Positions 16,353-62,501 of a stretch of DNA of 64,000 nt are shown here, piece by piece. This DNA is from an uncultured Candidatus Saccharibacteria bacterium. Lineage in GTDB: Bacteria; Patescibacteriota; Doudnabacteria; UBA920. Under the pieces are notes generated by a model. That model searched no databases, was not told the origin of the DNA, and worked only from the letters and a program-made list of their open reading frames with translations. The stretch is taken from positions 128-64,127 of the forward strand of contig CAZTXY010000001.1 of NCBI GenBank assembly GCA_964617815.1, given 5' to 3'. Position 1 is the stretch's first letter. Every line of letters starts with the position of its first letter. The position numbers and the translations under genes are program-made.

Positions 16353-16389
16353 ATTGGTATTATATCTAAATTTTGAAGATAAAAGAAGA

Positions 16390-16415
16390 GCCGGCGTCCC
16401 TCGTGGAACGCCGGC
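16390..16415 (-). terminator. hairpin terminator downstream of the island-A gene
   Basis: Stem GCCGGCGT/ACGCCGGC followed by a T-rich run on the minus strand. Confidence 0.5.
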
Positions 16416-16438
16416 ATACTCGAACCTACTAACAATGA

Positions 16439-17479
16439 TTACCGCGCCGGAATACGTCCGGCAGAAACAAGCAATCGCTTGAGCAGTTTGTTCGTCTGAG
16501 CGCCAATCTTATTGGATCTCCGAACCTCAGCCAGGATCTCCTTGAGAATCACGTCTTGGCTGATGAACTCTTCGAGCTCAGGAGGCTCCACTGCCAAGTT
16601 GCGACTGGTCGGAGCAGAATCTGCAGACAACACCCCAGTGGCAGTGTCGATGATCCTCTGGGCGTCCGAACCTGCCGGCACTTCGAGTTCACTTGTGCTG
16701 AAACGTAAGTCAACTCGCTCATTGAAAAATGCCTTAGCCAAATCTGCGAAGAGCAAGCGCCTTTCGATCAGCGTATTAATCATCATCACTTCAATGGCCG
16801 TCCGATGAACAGGATCCATATCCCATCCATTGTTTACCAGTAGTTGCATAAACAGCTGACCCCTCTCCAAGTCAATGCCCACGATGTACATGGTCGGCTC
16901 GATGAATCCCCGGTCTCGAGTTTGCTTGGTAAGCTCTTCGCACACCTCATCATAGAGACGCGGAAAACTTATATACCGGAGAGTTCCTTGATACCCTCCG
17001 AAGTCAAGGGGTTTATCTAGCGGCTTATACTGGGGATACTCCGCGAAGTTATGCACGAACTGAAACAGCATGCTCAGTTGTGGGAGACTAGTCATCTGAC
17101 TTTTGATCTTGTTGACCTCCACGATCCAGTCTGGATCATTAGTCGATGACCCCTCTGGTACTGGAGGTAAAGTATAGATCATGCCGCGGACTTTGCCCTT
17201 AGCCTTATGACCATCACCACAACAATACCCAATGTTCCCTGACGTAGCCCCCACAACATGGCAAAACCTTGTCAGCATGGCATTCCCGTGTGTTAAGACA
17301 TTGAGGTGATCTGGATCGCTCTTCTCCTGAGCACGAAAATCAGACTCAAAATCGTCTAGAGCTATTCCAATTTCAGGCGCAAACTTCGCAGTTAGCGCGT
17401 TGATGTTTGAATTCCCCCCTTTCAGATTTTCCCCCAAAATCTGCGTCGCCGCCAAGACTATTCCGGATTTATTGCTCAC
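16439..17479 (-). CDS. hypothetical protein in GC-rich island A
   Basis: 346 aa ORF at about 50% GC versus under 40% for flanking genes; GGGAGG RBS 6 nt upstream; Cys-rich patch CHVVGATSGNIGYCCGDGH; no family recognised. Confidence 0.5.
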   Translation of the reverse strand: MSNKSGIVLAATQILGENLKGGNSNINALTAKFAPEIGIALDDFESDFRAQEKSDPDHLNVLTHGNAMLTRFCHVVGATSGNIGYCCGDGHKAKGKVRGMIYTLPPVPEGSSTNDPDWIVEVNKIKSQMTSLPQLSMLFQFVHNFAEYPQYKPLDKPLDFGGYQGTLRYISFPRLYDEVCEELTKQTRDRGFIEPTMYIVGIDLERGQLFMQLLVNNGWDMDPVHRTAIEVMMINTLIERRLLFADLAKAFFNERVDLRFSTSELEVPAGSDAQRIIDTATGVLSADSAPTSRNLAVEPPELEEFISQDVILKEILAEVRRSNKIGAQTNKLLKRLLVSAGRIPAR

Positions 17480-17544
17480 GGTCTTCCTCCCTTTGGTGCG
17501 CTAGTAGCGCAAAAATGTCGGCGTCTGTTGTGCGCGAACATCCT

Positions 17545-17573
17545 AATATATAACAAAAACCGGCTTTAGTCAA
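17545..17573 (-). promoter_or_regulatory. sigma70-like promoter for the island-A gene (TTGACT-17-TATATT)
   Basis: Hexamers read on the minus strand; the -35 overlaps the terminator hairpin (17558-17580) of the upstream cyclase gene. Confidence 0.5.
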
Positions 17574-17592
17574 GCCGGTTTAGTAATTCTTC

Positions 17593-20678: not shown

Positions 20679-20682
20679 ATAA

Positions 20683-21933: not shown

Positions 21934-22036
21934 AAAGTAAAATTTTAATAACTATAGATATAATAGCACATTTGCCATGGATTTGAGATAAGACTTTATT
22001 ACTTCCAAGATGGTAATAAAATTATTTTAAAATTTG

Positions 22037-22933: not shown

Positions 22934-22937
22934 AAAA

Positions 22938-25548: not shown

Positions 25549-25557
25549 TGATAAAAA

Positions 25558-26637
25558 TTAAGATTGAAAAACGGACAAAGTCTCTTTGGCGCACTTATCC
25601 CAACCAAAAAGAGATAGTCGTGCTGTCCCCTGACTAATTAGTCTATCGGACAAGGACTTATCGAATAAAATTTTAGAAATTGCTGATTTGATTTCTGAAA
25701 CTCTTACAGGGTTAAAATATACTGCGGCCTCTCCAGCAACTTCTGGCATGCTCGAAATATTCGAGGTGGCCACCGGCACACCAGAGGCAAATGCTTCGAG
25801 GATAGGAATGCCAAATCCTTCATACAAACTTGGAAAGACAAACAGCCTAGCTTTTTTCATAACCATATACCGCTCATCATCTGAAACATGGTTTAAATAA
25901 ATAACAAAATTTTTGTTATTTTCAATTTGTTTTAATATTGATTCAAATTTCCAACCCGGCTTACCTACTACCACCAATTTATAGTGAGCTAACTCTGGAT
26001 ATTCTAAAACTAACTCCTTCATCGCCTGAATCAAAGTTGATAAATTCTTTCGCGGCTGAAGCGTTGATAAAAACAACACATATTGATCAGGGAGCTCTAA
26101 CTGACTGAGCGCATTCATTTGTAGCGGCGGCTGATCAAAACCATGGTGCACAACAATAATCCGTTCTGGGGGGACATTCCAAAATTTCAGGAAATCTTGC
26201 TTAGTACTTTCTGAAACTGCAATAATTTTCCACGCAAATTTGGCAACCAACCAATCTTCAAATTTATGAAAAGTTCGCGCAAACAAAGTGTAAGTTTCAG
26301 GAAAATGCATAAAGGCAAGGTCATGAACCGTCACAACGGTTTTTTTGGGGTGAATTATGGGCATAGAAGAAGCAGGAATAAACAGTAAGTCTACTGGACT
26401 AAATAACATTTCTACTGACAGTCTTACTTGTGTCCAAAAAATTGGAAAAGGCATAACTTTGAGGCGAAAGTTTTTAGGCAAATTCAATAACCAAGCCTCT
26501 GGTTTGGTCCGAAGATACAATATGTATTGATTTTGTAAATCTATTGTGGATAAATGCAAGATTAACTGCTTTGCATAATGCTCCACACCAGTTTTTTGAG
26601 TGCTATTTGCACGTTCAGCCTCTATCCCAATAACCAT
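25558..26637 (-). CDS. glycosyltransferase family 4 (GT-B)
   Basis: C-terminal EGFGIPILEAFASGVPV motif. Confidence 0.8.
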   Translation of the reverse strand: MVIGIEAERANSTQKTGVEHYAKQLILHLSTIDLQNQYILYLRTKPEAWLLNLPKNFRLKVMPFPIFWTQVRLSVEMLFSPVDLLFIPASSMPIIHPKKTVVTVHDLAFMHFPETYTLFARTFHKFEDWLVAKFAWKIIAVSESTKQDFLKFWNVPPERIIVVHHGFDQPPLQMNALSQLELPDQYVLFLSTLQPRKNLSTLIQAMKELVLEYPELAHYKLVVVGKPGWKFESILKQIENNKNFVIYLNHVSDDERYMVMKKARLFVFPSLYEGFGIPILEAFASGVPVATSNISSMPEVAGEAAVYFNPVRVSEIKSAISKILFDKSLSDRLISQGTARLSLFGWDKCAKETLSVFQS

Positions 26638-26706
26638 ATATTCATTGTAACATAGCAGAGCCCGTCGTGCATTTTGCCATATAAACCAAATTAGTTTCTA
26701 TTTCTA

Positions 26707-27234: not shown

Positions 27235-27240
27235 TGGCGC

Positions 27241-27591: not shown

Positions 27592-27633
27592 GAACTATAT
27601 TTAAGGCTTATAAGATCTTTAAATTATACCATA

Positions 27634-27912: not shown

Positions 27913-27932
27913 AATTTAAATCTCAATAATTA

Positions 27933-28253: not shown

Positions 28254-28793
28254 TTATATTAATAAACTTGCAAACTTTTTTCTAAACTTTTCTAACTTCG
28301 GATTAATTATAACCTGACAATATGGTTTATCGCCATTTCTGTTGAAATAATTTTGATGATAATCCTCAGCTGGATAAAACTTTACCAGTGGTTCAATAGT
28401 CGTGACAACTTTCGCTTCAAAAATTTTATCATTATTGAGTTTTTGCAAAAACTTTTGAGCTTCCTGCTTTTGAATATCACTGCCATAAAAAATTACCGAG
28501 CGATACTGTGTACCCACATCATTACCCTGCCTATTTAGCGTAGTCGGGTCGTGGGTTGCAAAAAAAACTTCAAGCAAATCCTGAAACGAAATTTGCTCTG
28601 GATCATATTCAAACTTAATTACTTCAGCATGTCCCGTATTACCCAAGCTAACTTGTTCGTAAGTTGGATTATCTAGTTGGCCCCCAGCATAGCCAGAAGT
28701 CACGCTTAACACTCCCCGCAATTGCTGGAATACGGCCTCCGTACACCAAAAGCATCCTCCACCAAATATCGCTGTGTCTAATTTGATTTCCAT
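28254..28793 (-). CDS. msrA: peptide methionine sulfoxide reductase A
   Basis: GGGCFWCTEAVF active-site motif. Confidence 0.9.
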   Translation of the reverse strand: MEIKLDTAIFGGGCFWCTEAVFQQLRGVLSVTSGYAGGQLDNPTYEQVSLGNTGHAEVIKFEYDPEQISFQDLLEVFFATHDPTTLNRQGNDVGTQYRSVIFYGSDIQKQEAQKFLQKLNNDKIFEAKVVTTIEPLVKFYPAEDYHQNYFNRNGDKPYCQVIINPKLEKFRKKFASLLI

Positions 28794-28797
28794 ATTC

Positions 28798-29112
28798 TTA
28801 TTTTAGCTTATATCTGTACTTTTCGATATCCACAAGAAAGTCTGCCCCCACAAAGACCCCATCTTTCTGGAGTAACTCTCTTTGTAACTCTTTTGTAACT
28901 TCCCAATTTCCTTTAATACTAATTTGCCCTTTATTATTAATCACGCGCCACCAAGGAACGTTTGAGCCTTGCCCAAGAGCGCGTAATATCCCTCCAACCT
29001 GCCTGCTAGCTCTAGGACTGCCGGCATTTGCTGCGACCTGGCCATAACTAACCACAGCACCCTTTGGCACCGACTTTACAAATACTATGACTCTATCCTT
29101 AAAATCACTCAC
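28798..29112 (-). CDS. alkyltransferase-like (ATL) protein: MGMT DNA-binding domain without the active-site Cys
   Basis: VVSYGQVA...PWWRVIN, where Trp replaces the Cys of the PCHRV motif. Confidence 0.65.
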   Translation of the reverse strand: MSDFKDRVIVFVKSVPKGAVVSYGQVAANAGSPRASRQVGGILRALGQGSNVPWWRVINNKGQISIKGNWEVTKELQRELLQKDGVFVGADFLVDIEKYRYKLK

Positions 29113-30733
29113 TGGTTTTTGTTTTAAAATTATTTAAAAAAGTCACCACACGCTCGTCTAATTTTATATCATTTACATGGATAGGGCGTTGAAGTGTAAT
29201 ACCCTGCAACGTGCGACAACGCGAAAGTGCTACATATAATTGCCCATGCGCAAATGTTCCCGTCCCTAAATCAATATGAACTTTACTAAAAGTTTTTCCT
29301 TGACCTTTGTGAATTGTCACAGCCCAAGCCAGCTTTATTGGATATTGCGTAAATGATCCGATTACTTCGCTTTCTATTTTATTTGTTTCTGAATCAAAGA
29401 CATACTTAAAAAATTCCCAAGTGTACGGCTCAATCTGCTGTGTCGTGCCGTCTTCCAACTCTACTATTATATTATCTGCCTTATCTTCCTGTTTTTGAAA
29501 ACTTAAAATTTTTCCCATGGTCCCGTTAACCCACCGGCTTTCCATGTCATTATTAAGCAACATAACCTGTGCACCCTCGCGCAACGTTACTATCTCTTCT
29601 GTAGGCAGACGACTACCTGAAAAAGTTCCGTGAAGACGCCCGCGATATTTTTTTGCCTCTCCAAAAAGTTTGTTTAAATGTGTCTGATTAATAGCTGAGG
29701 CACGGCTATTAGTCGTAGTCAAACTGATAATAAAATCCCCTTCCTCATATTGAAAATCTGGGTTAACCTGATTGTTTAAATGTGCCAAATCCTCATCTGT
29801 CGTGCAATTATCACGAACCGCATTTAATAAATTAATAAAGACTTCATCTTTTTGACGATAGACAGTTTCCAGTTCAATTAAACGGCAATCAATTTGGTTA
29901 AACACGTGAGCATCAAAAAAATATGGCGTAGCGTATTCTCCAAATAAATTAGCACCAGAATCCTCCGAAACGGCCTCCACAGGTGGAAGCTGGTAAAGGT
30001 CGCCAATAAAAACAAGCTGGTAACCCCCAAATGGGGCGTGCGAACTGCGACCATTAAGACGCAAAAATTTATCCAAACAATCCAAAAGGTCAGAGCGCAC
30101 CATAGAAATTTCGTCTATTATTATAGTGTTTAACTTTTGCAATAATTTTCTTTTTGGCTGATATGGCTTTAGCTGTTTTACTCGTCCAACAGTAATGTCT
30201 GCCGGAAAACCGCAAAACGAATGAATTGTTTGGCCTTCGACATTTAGCGCAGCCACTCCTGTTGGCGCTAACACCACAACCTGCTTTTCTGTGGTTGCCC
30301 GAAAATAATTTAGTAACGTAGATTTTCCCGTACCAGCACGTCCAGTAATAAAAACATTGCTATTGCTGTTATTTAAAATCTGCAGTGCATTTTTTATTTG
30401 TGGATTCTGGTCCATGACTGGAATTTCATGAATAGAGCCATGGGCGATACCAGATTTCTTTTTTTTGCTAAGTGTTCGAGCTGGATTTTTGGCACCTATT
30501 TTACTAAGCCGCGAAGTAATAGCCCCCGGGTTGCGTCCGTAATGACCAACGGCCCATTCGACAAAGCCCCCGTAATCTTCGGGCATGCCTTGTTCTTTTT
30601 GCATAAACTTTTCCCAATCCTGTTTTAATTCATCCAACTCTGAATCTTTCCAAGGCTCATAAGCACGCGGAAAAGTCTTGCGAATTTCCAAAAGTTCTTC
30701 TGGTGGTGGAATGCTATGTGCCATGATATTCAA
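29105..30733 (-). CDS. Pif1/RecD-like SF1 DNA helicase
   Basis: Walker A GRAGTGKST, DEISMV and the C-terminal TIHKGQGKTF motif. Confidence 0.75.
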   Translation of the reverse strand: MNIMAHSIPPPEELLEIRKTFPRAYEPWKDSELDELKQDWEKFMQKEQGMPEDYGGFVEWAVGHYGRNPGAITSRLSKIGAKNPARTLSKKKKSGIAHGSIHEIPVMDQNPQIKNALQILNNSNSNVFITGRAGTGKSTLLNYFRATTEKQVVVLAPTGVAALNVEGQTIHSFCGFPADITVGRVKQLKPYQPKRKLLQKLNTIIIDEISMVRSDLLDCLDKFLRLNGRSSHAPFGGYQLVFIGDLYQLPPVEAVSEDSGANLFGEYATPYFFDAHVFNQIDCRLIELETVYRQKDEVFINLLNAVRDNCTTDEDLAHLNNQVNPDFQYEEGDFIISLTTTNSRASAINQTHLNKLFGEAKKYRGRLHGTFSGSRLPTEEIVTLREGAQVMLLNNDMESRWVNGTMGKILSFQKQEDKADNIIVELEDGTTQQIEPYTWEFFKYVFDSETNKIESEVIGSFTQYPIKLAWAVTIHKGQGKTFSKVHIDLGTGTFAHGQLYVALSRCRTLQGITLQRPIHVNDIKLDERVVTFLNNFKTKTSE

Positions 30734-30817
30734 TAAAAATAAATAAGACTGCTATATATTACACTATATCAGATAAAGAAATTCTAAAGACTTTTAAATA
30801 AAATTTCTTTACATTTC

Positions 30818-30846
30818 TTGCGTATTTAAGCTAATAATTTTATACT
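30818..30846 (+). promoter_or_regulatory. sigma70-like promoter for the island-B gene (TTGCGT-17-TATACT)
   Basis: Hexamers with 17-nt spacer about 50 nt upstream of the ATG at 30897. Confidence 0.5.
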
Positions 30847-30896
30847 GTCGCTACTCGCACACCTCGAGACACTTGGAAAATCCTGTAGGAGGGAAG

Positions 30897-31445
30897 ATGA
30901 ACACAAGCCATCAAGAAGGCGTTGTGCGGTTGCAGAGCAGGCTGGGATTGCTTGGATTTAACTACTTTCCCCCGAAAAGCGGAAGGGATGACAAGAAGCA
31001 CTGCTTTTCAAAATCTGTCGGGCCTGCCCGCCACAAGACTGCAGTCCGAATTTGGCTGAAGCTTTTCAACGAAGGCTTCGGCAGCAAAGAACGGTATGCC
31101 GCTTCTATCATTCTGGTCGGCAATGGCTGGGGAGAACTCTGGAAGTTTAAATCCTTGGCCTGGAGCAAAAATCCTGAGGGAAATCTCAAACGCTTGTTTG
31201 CTAAAGCAAAGCTAGCAAGCAAATTTCTAGGCTCCCAGATTTACTGCCCCACTTTGGGGCACGGCTTGGGAAAAGGGATGAAACCCATTCTCGTCGCAGA
31301 CAGACGGCGACACATGACCATTGCCTGGCGCTGTTGCCACGCTGGATGTCAGTCGACTTTCAGGCTTGAAAGCAAACTCTCCAATGCAATCATGGTTCAG
31401 ACCGACAAGGCCTTTCTGCTTGAACTAGCGACCACTGGCGTCTAA
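30897..31445 (+). CDS. hypothetical Cys/His/Trp-rich protein in GC-rich island B
   Basis: 182 aa from the ATG at 30897, preceded by AGGAGG at 30887-30892; the ORF-track start at 30873 is TTG. About 50% GC; contains WRCCHAGC and YCPTLGHG. A stop-free 190-codon frame is improbable by chance. Confidence 0.5.
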   Translation: MNTSHQEGVVRLQSRLGLLGFNYFPPKSGRDDKKHCFSKSVGPARHKTAVRIWLKLFNEGFGSKERYAASIILVGNGWGELWKFKSLAWSKNPEGNLKRLFAKAKLASKFLGSQIYCPTLGHGLGKGMKPILVADRRRHMTIAWRCCHAGCQSTFRLESKLSNAIMVQTDKAFLLELATTGV

Positions 31446-31451
31446 CGCAAA

Positions 31452-31485
31452 GCGCCACAGCCTACCAACTGGTAGGTTGTGGCGC
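31452..31485. terminator. bidirectional terminator
   Basis: 15-bp stem GCGCCACAGCCTACC/GGTAGGTTGTGGCGC with one G-U pair, 4-nt loop, immediately after the island-B stop. Confidence 0.6.
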
Positions 31486-31497
31486 TAAAATTTTATA

Positions 31498-32211
31498 CTA
31501 ATACTTAATAAAGGTGTTTACTTTAGCCTTTGCTCTCAAATCGGCTAATAACTGATTGGAATGCTCAGATAATTTTTCTTGCTTTAAGCCTTCTTTTATC
31601 TGCTCTTTTGCTTCCTGTTCCTTACCTGCTTCTGGCGTAATGGAGTTGTCTTTCATATATTGCACGATCTCTTCGTCGGTAATGTTTACTTTATCACCGA
31701 GTATTTTTTCTACCTTCTTTTGAATTTCAATCTGATCACGTAAATCTTGGCGAGTCATCCCTTGAACCGCTAAGCTTTCGTCTAAGGTTCCCCCATTCGC
31801 CGAGAATTGATCTTCATATCGTTTTATATCTGGATCAATATCTGAATCGGTAATCACAATATTCATGTCACTTGCCGCCTTATTAACAAGCTGTTTGTTT
31901 ATCAACAATTCCAAAGCATCTTTTCCACCTTGCTTTTCAAGCTCTGAAATTACCGAAAAACGAGTAATTACATGGCCATCAACCGAAGCCACTACAACTA
32001 AATTACCGAACTTGTAAATTAATCCTGCCAAAATTAACAAGCAGCCAAGCACAATGGCGCCATTTAAAAATTTCTTTTTGTGCTTATCCCAAAAACTTCG
32101 ACTATTTAATTCCCCATTTTCTGAAACTAGAGAATTCCCCGTAACTGTTGCTAACTCACTGTCTTTTAAATTTTGTGTCTCAATTTGAGACTCATTTTGT
32201 TGTGTATCCAT
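31498..32211 (-). CDS. membrane-anchored SurA-N/PpiD-like chaperone domain protein
   Basis: N-terminal TM helix, then a SurA N-terminal-like helical domain (LINKQLVNKAASDMNIVITDSDID); no clear PPIase motif. Confidence 0.45.
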   Translation of the reverse strand: MDTQQNESQIETQNLKDSELATVTGNSLVSENGELNSRSFWDKHKKKFLNGAIVLGCLLILAGLIYKFGNLVVVASVDGHVITRFSVISELEKQGGKDALELLINKQLVNKAASDMNIVITDSDIDPDIKRYEDQFSANGGTLDESLAVQGMTRQDLRDQIEIQKKVEKILGDKVNITDEEIVQYMKDNSITPEAGKEQEAKEQIKEGLKQEKLSEHSNQLLADLRAKAKVNTFIKY

Positions 32212-32258
32212 TTATAAATAATATCATATAGGCAAAAAAATGCCAAAATAATGAAAAT

Positions 32259-32283
32259 GCAGGGAGCTTATTCAGCTCCCTGC
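32259..32283 (-). terminator. terminator after the island-C operon
   Basis: Perfect stem GCAGGGAGC/GCTCCCTGC followed by a T-run on the minus strand. Confidence 0.55.
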
Positions 32284-32313
32284 ATTAAGCGCGCGTAGTT
32301 TGCGCAAAAAAAT

Positions 32314-32562
32314 CTAGTGCGTTTCGCCCCGAAGGCGGACGACCCGAATGACGTGTGGCTTCACGTAATTCGGGTGACGATGACAGCCTGGGCAACCGAG
32401 CTGTAGTTCATACATCATGCCCATTTCTCGCTTTAGGCCTTCGGCCAAAGTAATGACTTCCTGTCTGGAGAACTCCTCAGGATCTAGCCTGGCGGTGAAC
32501 TCTCGTCCTGGCTGAAGCGCGATACTAACCCGCAAAATATCGCAAGGTGTTGCAAGTGACAT
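32314..32562 (-). CDS. small CPGC/His-motif protein, island-C paralogue 1
   Basis: 82 aa; AGGAGG RBS 5 nt upstream; C-terminal GCPGCHRHPNYVKPHVIRV; paralogous to the upstream gene. Confidence 0.5.
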   Translation of the reverse strand: MSLATPCDILRVSIALQPGREFTARLDPEEFSRQEVITLAEGLKREMGMMYELQLGCPGCHRHPNYVKPHVIRVVRLRGETH

Positions 32563-32576
32563 GGTTTCCTCCTGGC

Positions 32577-32855
32577 TTAACAGACATAGTCTGTGCCGGA
32601 TATGCTTGTGGCCACAGCCAGGTTTAAAACTTCCCGCCTGACCACCAGTACGTGATTAATCGGCTGGCCCTCATGACAACTACACCCAGGGCAACCGCCG
32701 CCGTGTTCCGTGACGCAGAACTCACGAGCAAGTTCTGCTTGCAAGCGCGCAATACGTTCAGCCGTAAACTGGTACCGCAACTCTGCGGCAAAGCTTTGGC
32801 CTTCGCGCAAAGTCCGAGCAAGAGCCATAACCCTTGCTGGCGTCATCAATTCCAT
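32577..32855 (-). CDS. small CPGC/His-motif protein, island-C paralogue 2
   Basis: 92 aa; GGGAGG RBS; C-terminal GGGCPGCSCHEGQPINHVLVV aligns with paralogue 1 (TP...L, GCPGC, HV..V.R). Confidence 0.5.
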   Translation of the reverse strand: MELMTPARVMALARTLREGQSFAAELRYQFTAERIARLQAELAREFCVTEHGGGCPGCSCHEGQPINHVLVVRREVLNLAVATSISGTDYVC

Positions 32856-32903
32856 GAGCCAACCTCCCTTCTCTCAAATGTCCTCCGTCAAAATCGATCC
32901 CAA

Positions 32904-32932
32904 AGTCTAGCACACTTACGTTAGTTAATCAA
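32904..32932 (-). promoter_or_regulatory. putative promoter for the island-C operon (TTGATT-17-TAGACT)
   Basis: Read on the minus strand between the terminator hairpin and the paralogue-2 start. Confidence 0.4.
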
Positions 32933-32940
32933 GGCAAACT

Positions 32941-32968
32941 AAAACGCCTTGGCAAGCCAAGGCGTTTT
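32941..32968. terminator. bidirectional terminator
   Basis: Perfect 12-bp stem AAAACGCCTTGG/CCAAGGCGTTTT; serves the pilin gene above it. Confidence 0.6.
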
Positions 32969-32982
32969 AGACTAACTATAAT

Positions 32983-38881: not shown

Positions 38882-40381
38882 TTAAACAGATTGGCGAAAT
38901 GGTAACATTTTTTTTATCATTACCAAATCATTTTTTTGCCAAAAATTTAAAAGTACCAAGACAACAAAGTACACAGTTACTCCAATAACTCCCATTCCAA
39001 TTAGATTTGCCAATTCACGAACAAAGCTCTGTGCAACTTGATCAAGCCAATTTTGCCAAATACTTGAGTCTTGCACAAAATATACCACGACACCCATAAC
39101 AGCGGCCGCTAAAGCTGGTCGCCACACAAAACGAGCAAAGGAAAAATTAGTTAATTTTGTTTTAACAAAATAAAAATACAATGCGCCCTGAATAAACTCT
39201 GAGGCTACTGTCACACTTGCGGCTGCCACAATTCCATAGCGCGGTAAAAGAATTAAATTAGCGGCAATGTTAATGACTACATTTATCACGGTCACTACCA
39301 CGGCCCATTTAGTTAGTTGGGAAATAACCAAGGCATTGGCCACAATATAAGTTAACAGTATGGCGGGAGCCCAAATTAAAACCGACAAAACCGAACTTGC
39401 GCCCAAAAATTCTTCGCCTGCCAAAATAAATATAATCGATTTTGCCAGCAACATACCACCAACAGCCAACGGCAAAGCTAAGGCCAACAATAAACGCAAA
39501 TATTTTTCAACTATGGCTCTGACCTCAGAAATCTGCCCCTTGGCCACCAAACCCGCAAACACAGGATATAAAGTAAATGAAACTATCGATGGAAAAAAAG
39601 CAACAAGGTCAAAAAATCGGTACGCACTAGCATAGAGTCCAGTAGCTTCCGCCCCTAACATTTTATAAATAATAACCATATCAATTCGGTTATAGATAGT
39701 ACTAAAACCAACAAGCAACGCAAAGGGAAGAGCTGCGCGCATAATTTGTTTGGCAAAACCAAAGTCAAAATATCTAAATGCATTCCAAATTTCCGCACGC
39801 GGGATGTAAACACGCACAAACCGGCGGTATAAAAACAATCCAATAATTCCAAAAATTAACTGGTTGCTGACTAAAAACACAATGTATTTACCCAACACAA
39901 TGGTCAATGTGATAATGACCACGTTAACCATGGAATTCATAAAGTTTATCAGCGCAACTTTTTTTAAATCCTGATGTGCGCTCATCACGGCCAAATACGG
40001 ATAAGTTAACCCGGCAAAAACAAAACCTAAACCAGAAACAGCAATCGCGCCCATCACCACTGGCTCATACCCATTCCCAAAGGCAATCGCCATCATTAGA
40101 GCATAGACCACAGTTGCCAACACAACTTCAACGGCAAAAAAGTTTTGTAAATAATATTTAGCGCGAGTTGGCTCTTCGCTAATTTTTTTGATAATAAACT
40201 GCTGAAGACCAAAGTCAATTATTACTCCAAAGATAGTTGTGAACGATAAAACAAACTGATGCTGTCCGGTACCATGCGGGCCTAAATATCTAAGCAAAAA
40301 AATATACGCTACGGCAAGTAACGCAATAGCGATGGTGCGCGAAAGCGACAACCAGAAAATATTTTGTGAGGGTGTAGCCAT
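38882..40381 (-). CDS. oligosaccharide flippase (MOP/Wzx family)
   Basis: 499 aa, about 12-14 TM helices typical of polysaccharide-biosynthesis flippases. Confidence 0.65.
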   Translation of the reverse strand: MATPSQNIFWLSLSRTIAIALLAVAYIFLLRYLGPHGTGQHQFVLSFTTIFGVIIDFGLQQFIIKKISEEPTRAKYYLQNFFAVEVVLATVVYALMMAIAFGNGYEPVVMGAIAVSGLGFVFAGLTYPYLAVMSAHQDLKKVALINFMNSMVNVVIITLTIVLGKYIVFLVSNQLIFGIIGLFLYRRFVRVYIPRAEIWNAFRYFDFGFAKQIMRAALPFALLVGFSTIYNRIDMVIIYKMLGAEATGLYASAYRFFDLVAFFPSIVSFTLYPVFAGLVAKGQISEVRAIVEKYLRLLLALALPLAVGGMLLAKSIIFILAGEEFLGASSVLSVLIWAPAILLTYIVANALVISQLTKWAVVVTVINVVINIAANLILLPRYGIVAAASVTVASEFIQGALYFYFVKTKLTNFSFARFVWRPALAAAVMGVVVYFVQDSSIWQNWLDQVAQSFVRELANLIGMGVIGVTVYFVVLVLLNFWQKNDLVMIKKMLPFRQSV

Positions 40382-40411
40382 GAGCCTTTATTATAGCAAA
40401 ATTAGCCCTAT

Positions 40412-40440
40412 TTGACCAAAATCAAGATATGTGGTAGAAT
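40412..40440 (+). promoter_or_regulatory. near-consensus sigma70 promoter for the island-D gene (TTGACC-17-TAGAAT)
   Basis: Hexamers seen directly; leaves a 5' UTR of about 100 nt before the ATG at 40548. Confidence 0.55.
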
Positions 40441-40547
40441 TGGAACTATGAATTCGTCGCCTGTTTTGGGGCTTTAGCATGCCTACGCTAAACCTTGAAA
40501 CAGCCGAAATCTGAAATGTAGTTACAACCAAATAGGAGCGATAGACT

Positions 40548-40862
40548 ATGAATGGTCTGAGCACTGTCGAAATCGATGGCCGAAGGGTCATCGAAATCAC
40601 TGACTTCAACAAGTCCAAGGCGATCGCCGCCCCGATCCATCTCGCCATCACGGCGGCCAAGATGGGCATCGAGACCCAGAGCGAGAGCCATCATCCGGCC
40701 CACCCGGAAGCAAAGGTCATTTCGTACCCGGTGTGGATGGCAGGATGGGGGGGCAACATGAAGGTTTTCCCGATGACGGCCCCGCAGTTGATCGACTATC
40801 TGCGTCGTGGCCGTGGCGAGCACTCGCCCGACCACACGACCGTCGTCGCCGCGACGGTCTAG
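40548..40862 (+). CDS. hypothetical protein in GC-rich island D
   Basis: 104 aa, about 58% GC; AGGAG RBS 7 nt upstream; no family recognised; minus-strand ORFs here are composition artefacts. Confidence 0.5.
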   Translation: MNGLSTVEIDGRRVIEITDFNKSKAIAAPIHLAITAAKMGIETQSESHHPAHPEAKVISYPVWMAGWGGNMKVFPMTAPQLIDYLRRGRGEHSPDHTTVVAATV

Positions 40863-40888
40863 ACCGAAACCGCGCAACCCGCGCACAC

Positions 40889-40920
40889 AGGCCACCCCGA
40901 CACTTTGTCTGGGGTGGCCT
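40889..40920 (+). terminator. terminator of the island-D gene
   Basis: GC-rich stem AGGCCACCCCGACA/TGTC(T)GGGGTGGCCT followed by TTCTCATTT. Confidence 0.55.
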
Positions 40921-40940
40921 TTCTCATTTATAATCAAAAA

Positions 40941-40973
40941 AAGCGGCACCCTTTGTTGCAAAGGGTGCCGCTT
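40941..40973. terminator. bidirectional terminator
   Basis: Perfect 15-bp stem AAGCGGCACCCTTTG/CAAAGGGTGCCGCTT, A-run before, T-rich after. Confidence 0.6.
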
Positions 40974-40988
40974 CTATAATTTCTCAAT

Positions 40989-45566: not shown

Positions 45567-45652
45567 ATTTTTTGTGTTAATTTCGCCAAATTTTTTACAA
45601 CTAATATATTTGTATTATAGCAAAAAAATGTCATCTATGCGACTTGAATTCT

Positions 45653-45692
45653 ATATTTTCTCTTTTTCACAAATGTGAAAAAGAGAAAATAT
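45653..45692. repeat. perfect 18-bp inverted repeat (40-nt AT-rich palindrome)
   Basis: ATATTTTCTCTTTTTCAC-AAAT-GTGAAAAAGAGAAAATAT in the spacer between the DPM1-like gene and island E. Confidence 0.6.
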
Positions 45693-45734
45693 AAACACTA
45701 ATTTATGAATTTAAAAAAATAGATAAAATGAAAA

Positions 45735-45783
45735 CGCGGCACTTGTGCTTTCCGTCCGAAGACAGGAAAGACACGAGTACCGC
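45735..45783 (-). terminator. terminator of the island-E operon (UUCG-type tetraloop hairpin)
   Basis: Imperfect long stem with a TTCG loop on the minus strand followed by a T-rich run, just after the 45800 stop. Confidence 0.45.
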
Positions 45784-45799
45784 GCATCGCGACTAGCGA

Positions 45800-46990
45800 T
45801 TAGTTGTTGGGCTTCATAGCCCTGTTCCAGCGGCTGCCGCTGGAGTTGTTCCGAACCTGCCCACCACCGTCGGTGGGAGCAAGAGCGCGTTGTCCTCCGT
45901 TGTTACGCCGATCCCCGCGGCGCTCATCCGGAGCGACCACAGGATCGTCCTGATGCTTGATCGGCTTGGTGTCAGGACTTTGCCCATTGTTACGGATGAT
46001 CACCGGAACGAGAACCCAATTTCGGGTTACTCGCGGCTCAAAAGTTGCACACTCCCTCTCCCCAAAGGAGACTGTGATCACGCCATCTTCCCAGACAGCC
46101 GATCCGTTTCGATCCAGCGCAGTTGTCTTGTTGCGCTTGACCTCAACGGTTTGAGTGTGATTGTCAGGCCAGCTGACCTTGAGTTGGCCTTTGTCGTGCG
46201 AAGGATTTGTCGCATTCGCGACACGATCGCCAGCAGCTGTGCTGGTGGTCGAAAGCAGTACTGCCTTCCCACGCTCACCCTTCGAGCTACCGGCGTACGA
46301 AATCACGCCGGCGATGACCGTCTTCACCACAGTGCCCACGATCCCACCGACAGCCTTTTCGCGGCCAGAAGCCTCGCCCTTATATGAAATCTCAGGGCAA
46401 TCCGGACACGGAACGGTCACTGTTGTGGTCACCGGTTTTGGAGTCTCCGGTGTCGGCGGCAATGGTACCTCGGTAGTCCAAGTGTTCTCACACTTGTCCT
46501 CCCAATAGTAAATCCTCTTGCCGTCCCGATCCTCGAACTTGATGAGGGTCGGCGGTTCGTCCACGACACAGGGTGTCGCTTCCGGCTCAGGCGGGGTTGT
46601 AACCCACTTGAGCCGATTGAACGTCACACCGCCAGTGGAAGTTCGACATCCCTCCAAGTAACCAAGGGTCCAAGAACCTGGATCAAGGTAGACCCAGGCT
46701 TCGGGGTTGTCGCCCAGGTAGATCACCCGAGCGATTTTTCCGAATTCGTTCCAGGCCGGGAGCTTCCGGTATTTCTCCGGAATCTCCTTGACCTGGACAC
46801 GCTTGTACCCCTCGAACACCGACTTATCACCGGTGTACTTGGGGTGCGAGAAGACCTCGCTGGAGAGCTTCGTCATCTCATAGCGATCGCTACGGATGAG
46901 AGCCTTGCGATTCTGCGCATGCGCTGCCTGGGCCGTGAGGCCCAGGAGAAGCGCCGTGAGAAGAACGAGGGAAAAGATCACCTTGTTCAT
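45800..46990 (-). CDS. hypothetical secreted protein in GC-rich island E
   Basis: 396 aa, about 58% GC; signal peptide MNKVIFSLVLLTALLLGLTAQAAHA; Pro/Thr-rich linker; CPDCPE; C-terminal low-complexity R/N/G-rich tail. Confidence 0.45.
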   Translation of the reverse strand: MNKVIFSLVLLTALLLGLTAQAAHAQNRKALIRSDRYEMTKLSSEVFSHPKYTGDKSVFEGYKRVQVKEIPEKYRKLPAWNEFGKIARVIYLGDNPEAWVYLDPGSWTLGYLEGCRTSTGGVTFNRLKWVTTPPEPEATPCVVDEPPTLIKFEDRDGKRIYYWEDKCENTWTTEVPLPPTPETPKPVTTTVTVPCPDCPEISYKGEASGREKAVGGIVGTVVKTVIAGVISYAGSSKGERGKAVLLSTTSTAAGDRVANATNPSHDKGQLKVSWPDNHTQTVEVKRNKTTALDRNGSAVWEDGVITVSFGERECATFEPRVTRNWVLVPVIIRNNGQSPDTKPIKHQDDPVVAPDERRGDRRNNGGQRALAPTDGGGQVRNNSSGSRWNRAMKPNN

Positions 46991-47005
46991 TTCGTCTCCT
47001 TGGGC

Positions 47006-47734
47006 TCAGCGGCCCTCAACCAAATTTGCATCGTTCGCCGCCTCCAAAATCATGCGGAGGCTAGCGAAGAGAGTTTCTTGCCCATAGTAGTTCCGGGTCT
47101 TTGGCAGACGCACACCCAGTTGGGCCAGCGCGCCAATTGCCGGACCTCCTGTCTGCGCCGAAAAGGTGGAGCTCTGAGAGCCCCCCCACGGAATCCTCAA
47201 CTGTCCTGACCCCGTGGTAAATTCAAACACCTCGGCGTCAGATAGTGACTTTCCCGTGATCTCACCGCGCTGATTGCGCAGTGTGATTTCGACGTAAACT
47301 CGGTATGCGACCTTACGCGAGTTCTGCCCGCGCAAAGAGAAACTCTCCTGCACCGGCACCGAACTGACGTTCGGCTGAATACGCATAATGAGCTCGGCGT
47401 ACTTACGCTCCGCAACTGGTCGGCTGTCACCGAAAGCCCCCGCTTCGATCAAGCGGTTCACCAGTTTCTCGGCCATTGCCGAGTTCTGGAAACCACTAAC
47501 CTCTACGAAGACCGGAGTGAGCTGCTGAGGCGCGGATTGCGCCGGAGCATTAGGAACCGGCTGAGATGCCGGAACCGGCGCTGGCTGCGACGTCGCATTC
47601 GGGTCACCCTGCGCGGGACCCCAACGACGAGCCGCTTCTTCGCGGGTCATCAACTTGCGGCCCGACTGGGCCAAAGCGATCGGTGCCAACACGGCAACGA
47701 TCAGGAACGCGACAAAAATCTTGGTGGTGCTCAT
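47006..47734 (-). CDS. hypothetical secreted protein in GC-rich island E
   Basis: Start moved to the internal ATG (MSTTKIFVAFLIVAVLAPIALAQ signal peptide), which has an AAGGAG RBS 7 nt upstream; Pro/Gln-rich linker; about 58% GC. Confidence 0.45.
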   Translation of the reverse strand: MSTTKIFVAFLIVAVLAPIALAQSGRKLMTREEAARRWGPAQGDPNATSQPAPVPASQPVPNAPAQSAPQQLTPVFVEVSGFQNSAMAEKLVNRLIEAGAFGDSRPVAERKYAELIMRIQPNVSSVPVQESFSLRGQNSRKVAYRVYVEITLRNQRGEITGKSLSDAEVFEFTTGSGQLRIPWGGSQSSTFSAQTGGPAIGALAQLGVRLPKTRNYYGQETLFASLRMILEAANDANLVEGR

Positions 47735-47963
47735 GGATCTTTCTCCTTGTGTATCTGCGTGATGTATGGCCATGAACAGCCATGGGGACGACTAAATATT
47801 AACTAATCGCTTAGTTATCATTAGCCCTCCTCAGAGCTGTCAATGAACTTTCCAACTGATTGTGCTTTTAGGCACATTCCTGCCCCGCCCTCGCGGCGGG
47901 ACAAGATCTGCATGAAAGCTGTAACTTAATAGTATACTCTTCTACTTACATTCCTGTCGAGGC

Positions 47964-52041: not shown

Positions 52042-52058
52042 TTACTTATACAAATTTT

Positions 52059-52784: not shown

Positions 52785-53057
52785 CTTGCCTTAAGTTTAA
52801 CTACTTAATACTGTGTTCGTTGCAACACAGAAGGATAAGCTGCATCAGATTCTACTCCGTGAAGACGTGGCCCAAACACAGCCAATAGCGATAAGAAAAG
52901 TGCGACTAATGCTATTATCCATAATAACAATTGTTTTTGTTTCATAATTTTTTTGATTATCTAATCTATCATAAGCATACTAACAACAAAGAAAAAGGCA
53001 AGCGAGTTATCCACAAAAGGCTGTTTTCGCAACTTGAATCAAAATTTAGACAAAAAA

Positions 53058-53088
53058 AATCCCCCAGCTAAAAGCTCGGGGGATTTTT
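53058..53088. terminator. bidirectional rho-independent terminator
   Basis: AAAAAAAATCCCCCAGC-TAAAA-GCTCGGGGGATTTTTTT, abutting the rplU stop. Confidence 0.65.
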
Positions 53089-53394: not shown

Positions 53395-53467
53395 GATTTT
53401 AATCAGAAATTAAGAATTTATAGGAAAGTTTTTAACCTTCGTAGTATACCAAAACTACCCAAAAAAA

Positions 53468-54520: not shown

Positions 54521-54523
54521 AAA

Positions 54524-56197: not shown

Positions 56198-56199
56198 AT

Positions 56200-56565: not shown

Positions 56566-56646
56566 ATTGCCTCCTTATTATAACAAATTACCATTAAACA
56601 CGATAGGTGCTCCAAATTAGAATCTTTAACCAAAACCAAATAGCCA

Positions 56647-58332: not shown

Positions 58333-58349
58333 GCACTCAAACATAAACA

Positions 58350-59933: not shown

Positions 59934-59953
59934 ACAAAGTTAAAAAAACTTTC

Positions 59954-59977
59954 CCCGCACGACACGCGTCGTGCGGG
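59954..59977. terminator. bidirectional terminator
   Basis: Perfect 10-bp GC stem CCCGCACGAC-ACGC-GTCGTGCGGG with A-run before. Confidence 0.55.
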
Positions 59978-59992
59978 AGTCTTTGAATCACT

Positions 59993-60421
59993 CTAGGTGA
60001 AAACAATCTCTTCGCGCCACTCGGACAAGCCGGCTTCAAAAATACTTGCCCGCTTCTCGATCTGCCAAAGAGGCACGCCATGAATATTGCGGCTTGCGGC
60101 CTCAAGTGGGTTACAAACCAAGCGAATGACTCGGCAGTGAGCCTGGCGAGATTTTGCTGCCTCCCAGTAACGCTCAGCCTCCCAGAGCATGACGTTGGTG
60201 TTGTCAACCACGATCAGCGGGGCACCTGCGTAAAGGATCTCCAAGAACTTGTCCCAGCAAGTCCCATGTGCATCGGGCAAGAGGCTCGAGCAGAACCTGA
60301 ACTCTCTGTTTTCATCATAGAAGTATTCGTCAGCAGAGCAAACGATTGCTTCCGGAAAATTCTGGGCCACATAGTGTGACTTCCCAGAACCTGAGATCCC
60401 GCGCATAATAACGATGGTCTG
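59993..60421 (-). CDS. P-loop kinase of the AAA_33 type (predicted nucleotide/polynucleotide kinase)
   Basis: Walker A GISGSGKS, LIVVDNTN Walker-B-like motif; about 52% GC; start moved to MQTIV, which has AGGAGG 7 nt upstream. Confidence 0.55.
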   Translation of the reverse strand, partial: QTIVIMRGISGSGKSHYVAQNFPEAIVCSADEYFYDENREFRFCSSLLPDAHGTCWDKFLEILYAGAPLIVVDNTNVMLWEAERYWEAAKSRQAHCRVIRLVCNPLEAASRNIHGVPLWQIEKRASIFEAGLSEWREEIVFT

Positions 60422-60457
60422 CATGACTATTCTCCTCCTCTTTGACATCCGACATCA

Positions 60458-60486
60458 TAGAATAGCAAAAACACAGCCTTGCGTCA
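60458..60486 (-). promoter_or_regulatory. putative promoter (TTGACG-17-TATTCT) for the AAA_33 kinase gene
   Basis: Hexamers read on the minus strand about 30 nt upstream of the start. Confidence 0.4.
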
Positions 60487-60578
60487 ATGTAGTGGACTGT
60501 GTTCATAACCTCATAATTTCAAGATTATCAAAAGTAAAACTCTGTGTCACGATAAGAAAATCTAAATGCAAAAACAAA

Positions 60579-60607
60579 AGAACTACTAACCCTCAATTAG
60601 TAGTTCT
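60579..60607 (-). terminator. terminator after the cmk-like gene
   Basis: Perfect 11-bp stem AGAACTACTAA/TTAGTAGTTCT, 7-nt loop, T-run on the minus strand. Confidence 0.55.
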
Positions 60608-60631
60608 TTAAGATTGCACAGCAGCCTAGGA

Positions 60632-61267
60632 TCAAACATGAGAGCCCATAGCAGCCACCACTTCAGCCACGGTCAACTTAGTAGTGTCTATGGTGATCGC
60701 GCCGTAAGGTTTTCGTGCCGGCGCAAATTCTCTATTTCTATCAACTGAGTCTCTCACTCGAAGTTGATAGCAGACTTCTGCAAAGGAGAGTTTCGGCTGA
60801 CTAGTGCGTAGTTCATTCCACCTCCTACTTGCTCGAGTGAAAAAATTACAGGCAAGGAAAAACTTGGCGTCTGCTTTGGGAAAAATGTCCAGCCCACAAC
60901 TTCTTCCATCACATATTAAATTTGCGTTTGTAAAACGCAAAGCAAAATCCTGGGCCCATTCTGCAACAGAAGTAAAAACAGCTGGATTACTGACGTAGTC
61001 AGCAGTTAATGCTGCCGCCTTTTCGCCCCTAAGATAGGCGGTTAAATCATTGCCGGACCAAAAAATCTTCTCAAAACCAACAGGTATCTCTAGGTGCTCT
61101 TTGTAAACAAAGCTGTCCAAAGACACGCAAAGTCGATTTTGCAAAGCGTAAACTGCAAACCGAAACAACAAGCCAAAATCCACGTAGCAAAAATCAAACT
61201 TTGCTGCAAAGAGCCTAGACACCGAACCTTTTCCCGAACCGGCCATACCACTTACTGCAACAATCAT
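60632..61267 (-). CDS. cmk: cytidylate kinase family protein (divergent NMP-binding site)
   Basis: AVSGMAGSGKGSVSRLFA P-loop, ICDGRSCGLDIFPKADAKFFL and C-terminal RDSVDRNREFAP align with the Cmk layout, but DFGLLFR replaces DSGAxYR; AGGAGG RBS. Confidence 0.65.
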   Translation of the reverse strand: MIVAVSGMAGSGKGSVSRLFAAKFDFCYVDFGLLFRFAVYALQNRLCVSLDSFVYKEHLEIPVGFEKIFWSGNDLTAYLRGEKAAALTADYVSNPAVFTSVAEWAQDFALRFTNANLICDGRSCGLDIFPKADAKFFLACNFFTRASRRWNELRTSQPKLSFAEVCYQLRVRDSVDRNREFAPARKPYGAITIDTTKLTVAEVVAAMGSHV

Positions 61268-61281
61268 GAAAACCTCCTGTG

Positions 61282-61626
61282 CTAGGTTTTGCTAGGACTT
61301 CGTTTCTTAGCAAAAGTCCCAGGGATTAAACGAAATGCCAAGCGGCCTTCCCAATGAAGCATAGGTATGCCAATTATAGTGCCGCACTTTTTGCACTCAA
61401 GCACACTAAAACTATGGGTCTCCTTTATTTCAGGATTATTTTGGAGACCAGCTAAATCTGGAGGGTCCAAAATTCGATTAAGGTAACAGCGCTTCAGTTC
61501 CCCATGTCCATCTTTTTGGTAAACCAAAATTTCAGACTGGCAAATTGCGCAAGAAAGGTAGAGCACCATAGCGCTTCCACCCCGACTTCTCCGAAACTTA
61601 TCGACCTTGAGTTTGTAAGCCATCAT
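61282..61626 (-). CDS. zinc-ribbon protein (hypothetical)
   Basis: CAIC ... CKKCG four-Cys ribbon; 114 aa; AGGAGG RBS lies inside the upstream gene's 3' end and start/stop overlap suggests translational coupling. Confidence 0.4.
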   Translation of the reverse strand: MMAYKLKVDKFRRSRGGSAMVLYLSCAICQSEILVYQKDGHGELKRCYLNRILDPPDLAGLQNNPEIKETHSFSVLECKKCGTIIGIPMLHWEGRLAFRLIPGTFAKKRSPSKT

Positions 61627-62501
61627 TATCCCTCCTTAAATTTTGTCGAAAAATTTTTTGACCAAAATTCTTTCTTTGCTCTTACATTCCTAATCAGTTG
61701 ATGATCTTTTGATTTGTAACCGTTTACAGACGACTTATTTGCTATTTCAAAACCCAATTTTGCAAATGCTTCTATTTTATATGGATTATCTGTATGAATA
61801 TTTAAACTATGTTTTGAGCTTAAACCTAGCGCTTTAATAATAATTGCAGCTTCTGTATAAGTCCGTTGATCAATAGATTTAGCATCGCCATAAAATAACT
61901 CCGCGGTTTCAATAGTGTCAAATCCTAACTCCTTCATAATTCGCTGGTTAGCCATTTTATATTCACCCCAGCCTCTACCATCTTGCCCAGGTATTTCCAC
62001 AATAATCCCAGATTTTAATTTAATTATCTCTTCTTGAGTTCTCCGAAGCTGATTTAAACAATCGCATGTTATATCCCCAAGTACCATTCCTGAAAAACAT
62101 CCCGAGTCAATTCTGATATTGACAATAGTATTATTAAAAACTTTTTGTAAGCTTGGATGAAGCAAAATATAATGTTGCCCCCATTGTCCGCCCACTACCT
62201 CAGCTGGAATAGATAAAAATTCACCCCGGTCCGTAATAATCGGGCCGGGGACTCCAAAGCAAACATATTTAGTCACACCTTGATGTTGAACCATGACAAA
62301 CTGATACTGCATTGACTCATGACGAAGTCGTAATATGTAATCAGAAACAGTTTCTGAAGATAGCCGAGCAGGTGATGGGATATAAACTTTATTTATAGCC
62401 GACCCTAAAATAGCTCTTTGCAGATGTTCATGCAAGTAGAGATTTTTTTTGGCTCTTAATTTGGAAAGCTGAGTATTCATACAAATTGAATTTATACTCA
62501 T
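61626..62501 (-). CDS. GTP cyclohydrolase II (RibA)-like protein with an N-terminal extension of about 90 aa
   Basis: Zinc-binding RIDSGCFSGMVLGDITCDCL and EIPGQDGRGWG...TIETAEL...TDNPYKIE align with RibA catalytic motifs. Confidence 0.6.
   Translation of the reverse strand: MSINSICMNTQLSKLRAKKNLYLHEHLQRAILGSAINKVYIPSPARLSSETVSDYILRLRHESMQYQFVMVQHQGVTKYVCFGVPGPIITDRGEFLSIPAEVVGGQWGQHYILLHPSLQKVFNNTIVNIRIDSGCFSGMVLGDITCDCLNQLRRTQEEIIKLKSGIIVEIPGQDGRGWGEYKMANQRIMKELGFDTIETAELFYGDAKSIDQRTYTEAAIIIKALGLSSKHSLNIHTDNPYKIEAFAKLGFEIANKSSVNGYKSKDHQLIRNVRAKKEFWSKNFSTKFKEG

Follow-up and report, generated by a model that had tools for sequence, protein, structure and literature searches.

GC-rich gene units with Shine-Dalgarno sites, probably ancient acquisitions, at conserved loci in an AT-rich Patescibacteria genome

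The stretch of DNA analysed here, hereafter the window, is a 64-kb segment from a groundwater bacterium of the Patescibacteria (candidate phyla radiation, CPR). It carries six compact GC-rich units, termed A to F, which hold eight genes and lie in gaps between native operons of an AT-rich background. A first-pass annotation had picked out such regions as self-contained cassettes, acquired repeatedly or inserted deliberately. Every unit is found at the identical locus, and equally GC-rich, in related genomes from other samples and assemblers, and the eight island frames are protein-coding genes under purifying selection. The units are probably anciently acquired, moron-like islets that became fixed before the genus-level clade diversified.

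The compositional contrast by which the regions were recognised is confirmed. In 400-nt sliding windows the GC content is 0.47-0.59 at 16.4-17.6, 30.8-31.6, 32.2-33.0, 40.4-41.2, 45.6-48.0 and 59.8-60.4 kb, and about 0.30-0.43 elsewhere. GC at third codon positions (GC3) is 0.55 in A, 0.57 in B, 0.54 in C1, 0.55 in C2, 0.80 in D, 0.66 in E1, 0.64-0.66 in E2 and 0.62 in F, compared with 0.19-0.39 in the native genes (57-59 genes). Among the native genes are rpoA, the rfb genes and those for a short AlaRS, ribosomal proteins, a sortase, glycosyltransferases, PilB/T, PilC and type IV pilins. First and second codon positions are also GC-enriched in the islands, so the shift is not limited to synonymous sites. 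It extends to amino-acid usage, with R/(R+K) of 0.40-1.00 in the islands and 0.36 in the natives, and a G+A+R+P content of 0.25-0.35 as opposed to 0.22. The share of CTG and CTC among leucine codons is raised in seven of the eight island genes (0.22-0.75 against a native 0.11), C2 being at 0.11.

The signals for expression differ as well. An AGGAG or GGAGG core, the Shine-Dalgarno (SD) site, is positioned 4-8 nt 5' of the start in all eight island genes once start codons are corrected (ATG at 30897 in B, 47734 in E2 and 60424 in F). A four-nucleotide SD core at -18 to -4 occurs in just 4 of 57 native genes, which is chance level (5.9% per interval scanned), and the SD contrast drawn earlier therefore stands. 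The same is true of the hairpins assigned to island ends, where the strongest terminator-like structures within 30-48 kb are found (31451-31486, 32256-32286, 32939-32970 and 40939-40975). With respect to promoters, four of five cassettes had been credited with one, E being the exception. The sites TTGACT-17-TATATT of A and TTGACC-17-TAGAAT of D are present as described, but E also has promoter-like sites. Because promoter-like matches are frequent in AT-rich DNA (48 observed, 34 expected) they are weak evidence when taken alone, and conservation in relatives is relied on instead. The description of self-contained units in gaps holds good: no integrase gene was seen among the open reading frames (ORFs) scanned in the window, which contains no tRNA gene and no Rfam family at gathering score.

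Relatives were taken from independent assemblies, namely ENA ERZ1749587/613/643/656 and ERZ1292643 (Hainich; contig labelled groundwater well H51, 0.1 µm fraction), Logan SRR21621038, SRR6158310 and SRR8893622, and JGI 3300045379. The contigs or loci are labelled L001 (the Logan contig from SRR8893622) and L082-L098 (L098 being from ERZ1749656). Nucleotide identity to the window is 82-87% and the synonymous divergence (dS) of native genes is about 0.4-1.2. L001 matches the window without a difference at both junctions of unit A. Three homologues of protein A were found among 5.8 billion proteins, with 95, 76 and 72% identity; on the ENA and JGI contigs that carry them all three genes are flanked, as in the window, by the CHASE2-cyclase gene and alaS. 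Orthologues of the unit occupy this locus in L082-L085, where the flanks are 82-87% identical to the window, and the GC content of the unit in relatives is 0.48-0.55 as against about 0.39. The locus of unit B is occupied in L095-L098 by orthologues with 94% amino-acid identity; the orthologue in L091 is partial. C1 and C2 have orthologues in L091 and L095-L098, and on the Hainich contig both genes, the SurA_N-like gene and the 3' end of B fall within a single 86% alignment. The orthologue of D in L086/L096 is unchanged in place and strand, with the promoter and first 80 nt of the leader conserved. Unit E has orthologues in L086-L090, two homologues of E1 being found. Orthologues of F, 90% identical, lie beside the same PMT_2 gene in three contigs, L092-L094.

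One long contig, NODE_263 of ERZ1749587, matches the window gene order for every gene. It runs rfb - sortase - E2 - E1 - GT2 - S8 peptidase - 622 aa - D, the last on the opposite strand, then flippase - cytidylyltransferase - PilT - PilC - pilins - C1 - C2 - SurA_N-like - B. Among relatives at synonymous dS 0.4-1.2 hardly any change is seen in the -35 and -10 hexamers, the SD sites or the terminators, and the substitutions that do occur in terminator hairpins are compensating or G·U-to-A-U. On this comparative evidence the six units predate the split of the sampled species-level lineages. At greater distance the comparison is lost. The nearest PilT among species representatives belongs to Patescibacteria metagenome-assembled genomes and is just 50% identical, which leaves no usable synteny; the SurA-like gene has a relative, also 50% identical, that stands among other genes. 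The island proteins are absent from 80 loci retrieved in the PilT scan, except for one chance match to C1.

Ratios of nonsynonymous to synonymous divergence (dN/dS, Nei-Gojobori, window genes against relatives) are 0.09-0.43 for A, 0.08-0.10 for B, 0.18-0.19 for C1, 0.10-0.14 for C2, 0.28 for D, 0.27-0.39 for E1, 0.06-0.15 for E2 and 0.17 for F; native genes give 0.01-0.15. The two genes of unit E differ strongly within the same relative, E2 being 95% identical with dN/dS 0.06-0.08 and E1 41% identical with dN/dS 0.38-0.39. The N-terminal half of E1 is hypervariable and unalignable at the nucleotide level. The signal peptide of E1 is conserved, as are a PCV...VTTTVT.PCP.CP block in the centre and a C-terminal tail of 45 residues, which is invariant. 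Divergence of A, C1 and E1 is out of step with the flanks, while that of E2 and D is like that of the flanks. One case is L084, in which the A allele is window-like (dS 0.056) though the adjacent cyclase gene has dS 0.74, as in other relatives, with a breakpoint near the A start codon. Recombination of cassette alleles, compositional constraint, or both, probably act on top of vertical descent.

Unit A (16353-17592, minus strand) fills the gap between the CHASE2-guanylate cyclase gene and alaS. Its promoter has a -35 TTGACT at 17573-17568 and a -10 TATATT at 17550-17545, separated by a 17-nt spacer, and the predicted leader is about 60 nt. The SD site GGGAGG (17491-17486) precedes a GTG start, the gene (17479-16439) encodes 346 residues and the terminator hairpin is at 16415-16381. 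Unit F (59934-60489, minus strand) is arranged in a similar fashion, with the -35 TTGACG in the loop of a hairpin at about 60489-60455, the SD site GAGGAGGAG, a gene for 143 residues (60424-59993) and a terminator at about 59975-59945. In both A and F the -35 hexamer (17568-17573 and about 60470, respectively) sits inside the loop of the upstream gene's terminator hairpin. This overlap of terminator and promoter is compact, the T-run serving as the spacer, and is seen in relative L092 at positions 1887-1925.

Unit B (30734-31497, plus strand) lies between a PIF1-type helicase gene and the SurA_N-like gene. A promoter-like site TTGCGT-17-TATACT at about 30818-30846 is followed by AGGAGG at 30887-30892, a gene for 182 residues (30897-31445) and a terminator at 31451-31486, common to the convergent native gene. 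On either side, at 30831-30846 and 31485-31499, stands a copy of an imperfect direct repeat of 15-16 nt, CTAA(T)AATTTTATACT, which is present in relatives also. The left copy is the source of the -10 box and the repeat delimits the GC-rich part exactly. It may be the remnant of a target-site duplication. The adjoining helicase gene (29105-30733) is unusually diverged, with 77% amino-acid identity and a proportion of synonymous differences (pS) of 0.74, which is saturated; neighbouring natives show 88-100% amino-acid identity. In L098, at 60-725, the gene directly upstream of unit B is that of an IS200-type Y1 transposase, a position taken in the other relatives by the helicase gene.

Unit C (32212-32982, minus strand) consists of two paralogous small genes, C1 (32855-32577, 92 residues, SD GGGAGG) and C2 (32562-32314, 82 residues, SD AGGAGG), with a terminator at 32286-32256; the terminator of the pilin gene is upstream at 32970-32939. 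Unit D (40382-40988, plus strand) is placed between a polysaccharide flippase gene and a native gene of 614 residues, on the opposite strand to both. Its promoter spans 40412-40440, the leader is about 105 nt and an AGGAG precedes the gene (40548-40862, 104 residues). D has a hairpin of its own at about 40889-40925, followed by a bidirectional terminator at 40939-40975. Unit E (45567-47963, minus strand), between the sortase gene and a GT2 glycosyltransferase gene, has promoter-like sites TCGACA-18-TATACT at 47960-47931 and TTGACA near 47845. E2 (47734-47006, 242 residues) and E1 (46990-45800, 396 residues) each have a signal peptide and the SD site AAGGAG, with a terminator at about 45788-45740. 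Upstream of E2, a stretch of about 190 nt at 47735-47925 (minus strand) folds to -69.5 kcal/mol (z = -5.1), has no Rfam match and hardly varies among relatives, its first hairpin showing G·U-to-A-U changes. It could be a cis-regulatory leader RNA. Elsewhere in this part of the genome, relatives carry a gene for a 586-residue ABC transporter between rplU and rfbA (L087 2408-4168; L092 9540-11300); the window lacks it (52785-53088).

What do these genes encode? They had been described as unassignable, which remains correct for A to E: the proteins queried gave no match in Pfam, PHROGs, PADLOC, NCBIfam or PDB by sequence or profile searches. It does not apply to F. This protein matches Pfam PF13671 (AAA_33) at 39 bits against a cut-off of 27 (E = 1.2e-9), has the Walker A sequence GISGSGKS, and matches the phrog_2071 ATPase at E = 5e-18. 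Matches to full-length Pnkp models are weak and far under their cut-offs, and PADLOC offers a weak P-loop match to a CARF-PDDEXK-AAA model (E = 1.8e-6 over 90 residues). F is predicted to be a small AAA_33 P-loop protein, distantly polynucleotide-kinase-like. C1 and C2 are 33% identical (E = 1e-7), which marks them as paralogues, and a C-x2-C-x2-H-x6-H motif is invariant in the alignment; they are likely to be small CCHH metal-binding proteins. A moderately confident AlphaFold2 model of C (predicted confidence, pLDDT, 73) is an alpha/beta sandwich with the order beta-alpha-beta-alpha-beta-beta. Its likeness to TusA/SirA-like sulfur carriers, which are marked by a conserved N-terminal Cys-Pro-x-Pro active site, and to other two-layer sandwiches is weak. 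The signal peptides of E1 and E2, together with sortase and surface-glycosylation neighbours, suggest exported or envelope proteins. A, B and D appear to be orphans. Word-index searches of the large protein collections, made with A and E1 alone among the island proteins, found no homologues outside the clade. Scans of viral contigs with A, E2, B and F returned no relatives, and a plasmid tblastn with E2, B and D no match. A profile of A run against 1.84 billion representatives retrieved, beyond the clade's own representative, a single match of 30 residues. That match is to a repeated motif in a SpaA/Cna-B-type repeat protein and was judged spurious.

The contrast in SD usage can be related to the folding of the mRNA. 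Computed over -30 to +30, start regions of the islands fold to -10.4 ± 3.1 kcal/mol and those of the natives to -4.9 ± 3.2 kcal/mol (Mann-Whitney p = 0.0005). A TATAAT-like -10 box whose end is 6-8 nt 5' of the ATG is present in several native first genes, namely alaS (14571-16352), 25558-26637, 28254-28793, the SurA_N-like gene (31498-32211) and 38882-40381. This suggests that their mRNAs are leaderless. Other native leaders are 20-28 nt, and those of the islands about 45-190 nt. A few native genes (34356 and 56200) do use AGGAG, so the ribosome probably keeps an anti-SD sequence. In this organism a strongly folded, GC-rich mRNA would be translated only with a strong SD site. High GC and SD sites would travel together because GC-rich start regions fold more stably and so need the SD.

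Two further features of native starts were noted. The words ACTAA and CTAAG (for example ACTAAGAAC, CTAAGCACTAAGAAC) are strongly enriched in the 35 nt 5' of native starts, among them those of 7486-7905, 7934-8278, 9350-9958, 10021-10485 and 58350. ACTAA occurs in 17 of 57 genes with 3.2 expected (p about 1e-8), although stop codons upstream may contribute. The words stand where an SD would be expected, most plainly so in the ribosomal protein operon. Sub-threshold Rfam matches were obtained to Alpha_RBS at 10934-11023 (minus strand, 33.4 bits, E = 6e-4), upstream of the S13 gene, and to L10_leader at 4860-4991 (minus strand, 31.6 bits, E = 0.28), both in plausible places.

We now consider how the units arose. 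From composition, amino-acid usage, expression signals and sharp borders we infer a foreign origin. The islets would have entered before the sampled species of the genus-level clade split, and since then would have been inherited at fixed loci and retained as protein-coding genes in the gaps between native operons. Each unit would be transcribed from its own sigma70-type promoter into a leadered mRNA that ends at its own strong hairpin. The GC-rich coding sequence would give a more stable fold at the start region and make translation dependent on a strong SD, while native genes would start on AU-rich, weakly folded or near-leaderless mRNAs lacking one.

Is such an age compatible with the high GC that persists? 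A two-state model was applied to four-fold degenerate sites, using a native GC content at these sites (GC4) of 0.311 and a per-lineage decay factor of 0.636. Neutral amelioration fits if the ancestral GC4 was 0.50-1.00, pooled 0.75. The idea that neutral amelioration is impossible was dropped, given that the model returned feasible ancestral values. Under this model the range is feasible for a donor of 60-70% GC, borderline only for D, and slow amelioration of GC toward the native level may be in progress. The first-pass annotation had proposed repeated acquisition from a GC-rich donor and components of one or more accessory systems. The data speak neither for nor against one donor or one system: GC3 is unequal between units (0.54 to 0.80), no donor homologue was found, and co-occurrence is uninformative because all units are present in every relative sampled.

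Several observations weigh against ancient acquisition. D requires an ancestral GC4 of about 1.0 under neutral decay. Divergence between strong (G or C) and weak (A or T) bases, S/W divergence, at four-fold sites of B, C2, D, E2 and F is 0.219 where neutral decay predicts 0.332 (n = 342, p = 7e-6, five genes grouped post hoc); in A and C1 it is above the prediction. The low values hint at constraint on composition or later exchange. Polarised third-position changes lean GC>AT at about 1.5:1, a weak signal given that the outgroups are saturated and the natives show a mirror-image bias. There are no mobility genes, and a check of the flanks found repeats at B only. For none of the units did the searches turn up a donor or a homologue beyond the clade. 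Among related contigs covering the loci there is no empty site, and more distant relatives lose synteny, so acquisition is argued from composition alone.

One alternative, unlikely though it deserves serious attention, is that the GC-rich composition is actively maintained, the units being a distinct expression class at compositional equilibrium and not decaying. Selection might act for mRNA stability, for rare-codon or SD-dependent translational control, or for condition-specific expression. GC3 is equally high in every sampled lineage despite the native dS, conservation extends to leaders and SD sites, the stretch before E2 folds strongly, and both the S/W deficit in five genes and the extreme ancestral value demanded by D are as expected of maintenance. 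However, the other ancestral GC4 values are plausible for a high-GC donor, polarised changes lean the wrong way, A, C1 and E1 diverge more than neutral decay predicts, and the five low genes were grouped after the fact. The shift in amino acids is likewise unexplained by selection at synonymous sites. A more elaborate version is a long shot. In this the GC-rich orphan genes, with structured leaders and SD sites, would form a separately controlled expression class in an SD-less bacterium whose native mRNAs are often near-leaderless, with selection or the exchange of cassettes between lineages keeping their composition, and translation occurring only in a particular state such as host-cell contact of a presumed episymbiont; the class would include E1 as a hypervariable surface protein. 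Slightly less credit still is given to the islands being recombination hot spots in which GC-biased gene conversion raised the GC in place. The L084 allele of A beside its diverged cyclase gene, the mosaic structure of E1 with conserved ends and an unalignable centre, and unit and flank divergence out of step in both directions would all fit. Yet the GC borders are sharp and coincide with transcription units, the shift covers leaders, first and second codon positions and amino-acid usage, the most GC-rich genes, E2 and D, diverge like their flanks, and orphan proteins point to import over local drift.

The remaining explanations carry little weight. GC-rich stretches could in principle be structured non-coding RNA genes, with ORFs that are by-products of high GC; ORFs do occur on both strands of the GC-rich regions, and the leader of E2 is highly structured. 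This is very improbable, as no island has an Rfam hit at gathering score or at E <= 0.5, all eight frames have dN/dS of 0.06-0.43 with synonymous changes in excess, the SD sites are correctly spaced and conserved, and F matches a Pfam family. For the coding parts the RNA reading is contradicted; it could hold for the leaders only, notably 47735-47925. Least credible of all is an artefact or a recent event, that is an assembly chimera, GC-rich contamination, or recent or engineered insertion of cassettes, the last of which the first-pass annotation had entertained. Only the abrupt compositional borders and the textbook layout of promoter, SD and terminator speak for it. The identical Logan contig across the junctions of A, and ENA, Logan and JGI contigs of diverged relatives that span all unit junctions, already refute it through synteny across assemblies and species, and the units have diverged together with their hosts. 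That annotation had also held that homologous cassettes at the same loci in relatives would count against its view. Such cassettes are present, but the compositional contrast with the flanks persists in those relatives.

The GC-rich region at 59.9-61.6 kb had been included in part among the cassettes. Unit F, at its lower end, is one of the conserved GC-rich units; the genes that follow are not. They belong to a separate segment of 3.1 kb (60490-63585) that carries, according to Pfam and NCBIfam hits, cmk (60632-61267), a Zn-ribbon-like gene for 114 residues (61282-61626), a GTP cyclohydrolase II-like gene (61626-62501) and a TrmB-family regulator (62720-63481). The segment is absent from L092-L094, in which window position 60489 joins 63586 and an amino-acid-kinase-family gene abuts the F promoter, and no copy was found in any fetched relative locus. 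CACAG occurs at both ends. The cmk and 114-residue genes have SD sites and an intermediate GC3 of 0.40-0.42. Of the regions considered here, this segment alone is strain-specific.

Sharp compositional borders and a textbook promoter, SD and terminator do not in themselves mark an island as recent, mobile or artificial; such an island can be a lasting part of a small Patescibacteria genome, kept under selection. With the units come eight orphan protein families that are confined to a single clade of groundwater CPR. E1, with its hypervariable exported domain, adjoins sortase and surface-glycosylation genes, and the orphan families are candidates for lineage-specific cell-surface or host-interaction functions. 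The presence in one genome of SD-less natives and SD-dependent GC-rich genes offers a natural test of the trade-off between start-region folding and SD use. The stakes are modest unless composition is actively maintained.

Comparison with known systems places the units in context. GC-rich intergenic regions in AT-rich genomes mark structured RNAs and have been used for the discovery of non-coding RNA. The units resemble them as short GC-rich blocks between AT-rich genes with hairpin ends, but have ORFs under purifying selection and no Rfam match. Integron cassettes are promoterless and form tandem arrays with attC ends next to an integrase gene. The units, like these, are small, mostly single-gene, of unknown function and foreign composition, but they are scattered 1-14 kb apart, each with a promoter and terminator, the flanking repeat (15-16 nt) is confined to B, and the ORFs scanned showed no integrase gene.

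Horizontally acquired genomic islets are said, after Lawrence and Ochman, to ameliorate slowly. The units share with them atypical GC, GC3, codon and amino-acid usage, sharp borders and a lineage-restricted distribution, and the ancestral GC4 required is compatible with a high-GC donor. They depart from that pattern in having no donor, empty site, mobility gene or tRNA target, and in synonymous change slower than neutral decay in five genes. Foreign DNA is more often AT-rich than GC-rich, so the direction here is unusual. The closest likeness in layout is to the morons of lambdoid prophages, reportedly described by Hendrix and colleagues as autonomous extra genes. Morons, like the units, are one or two genes inserted between functionally adjacent neighbours, with their own promoter and terminator, deviant composition and an accessory, often unknown, function. 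Unlike morons the units reside in a cellular chromosome, among alaS, ribosomal protein, pilus and cell-envelope genes, and not in a prophage; A, B and E2 have no PHROGs or viral-contig match, and the units are fixed in all sampled relatives, not variably present. The orphan families are new, and their kind, compositionally atypical acquired genes, is known; it is the setting that is unusual, with GC-rich, SD-dependent genes in an SD-less CPR genome.

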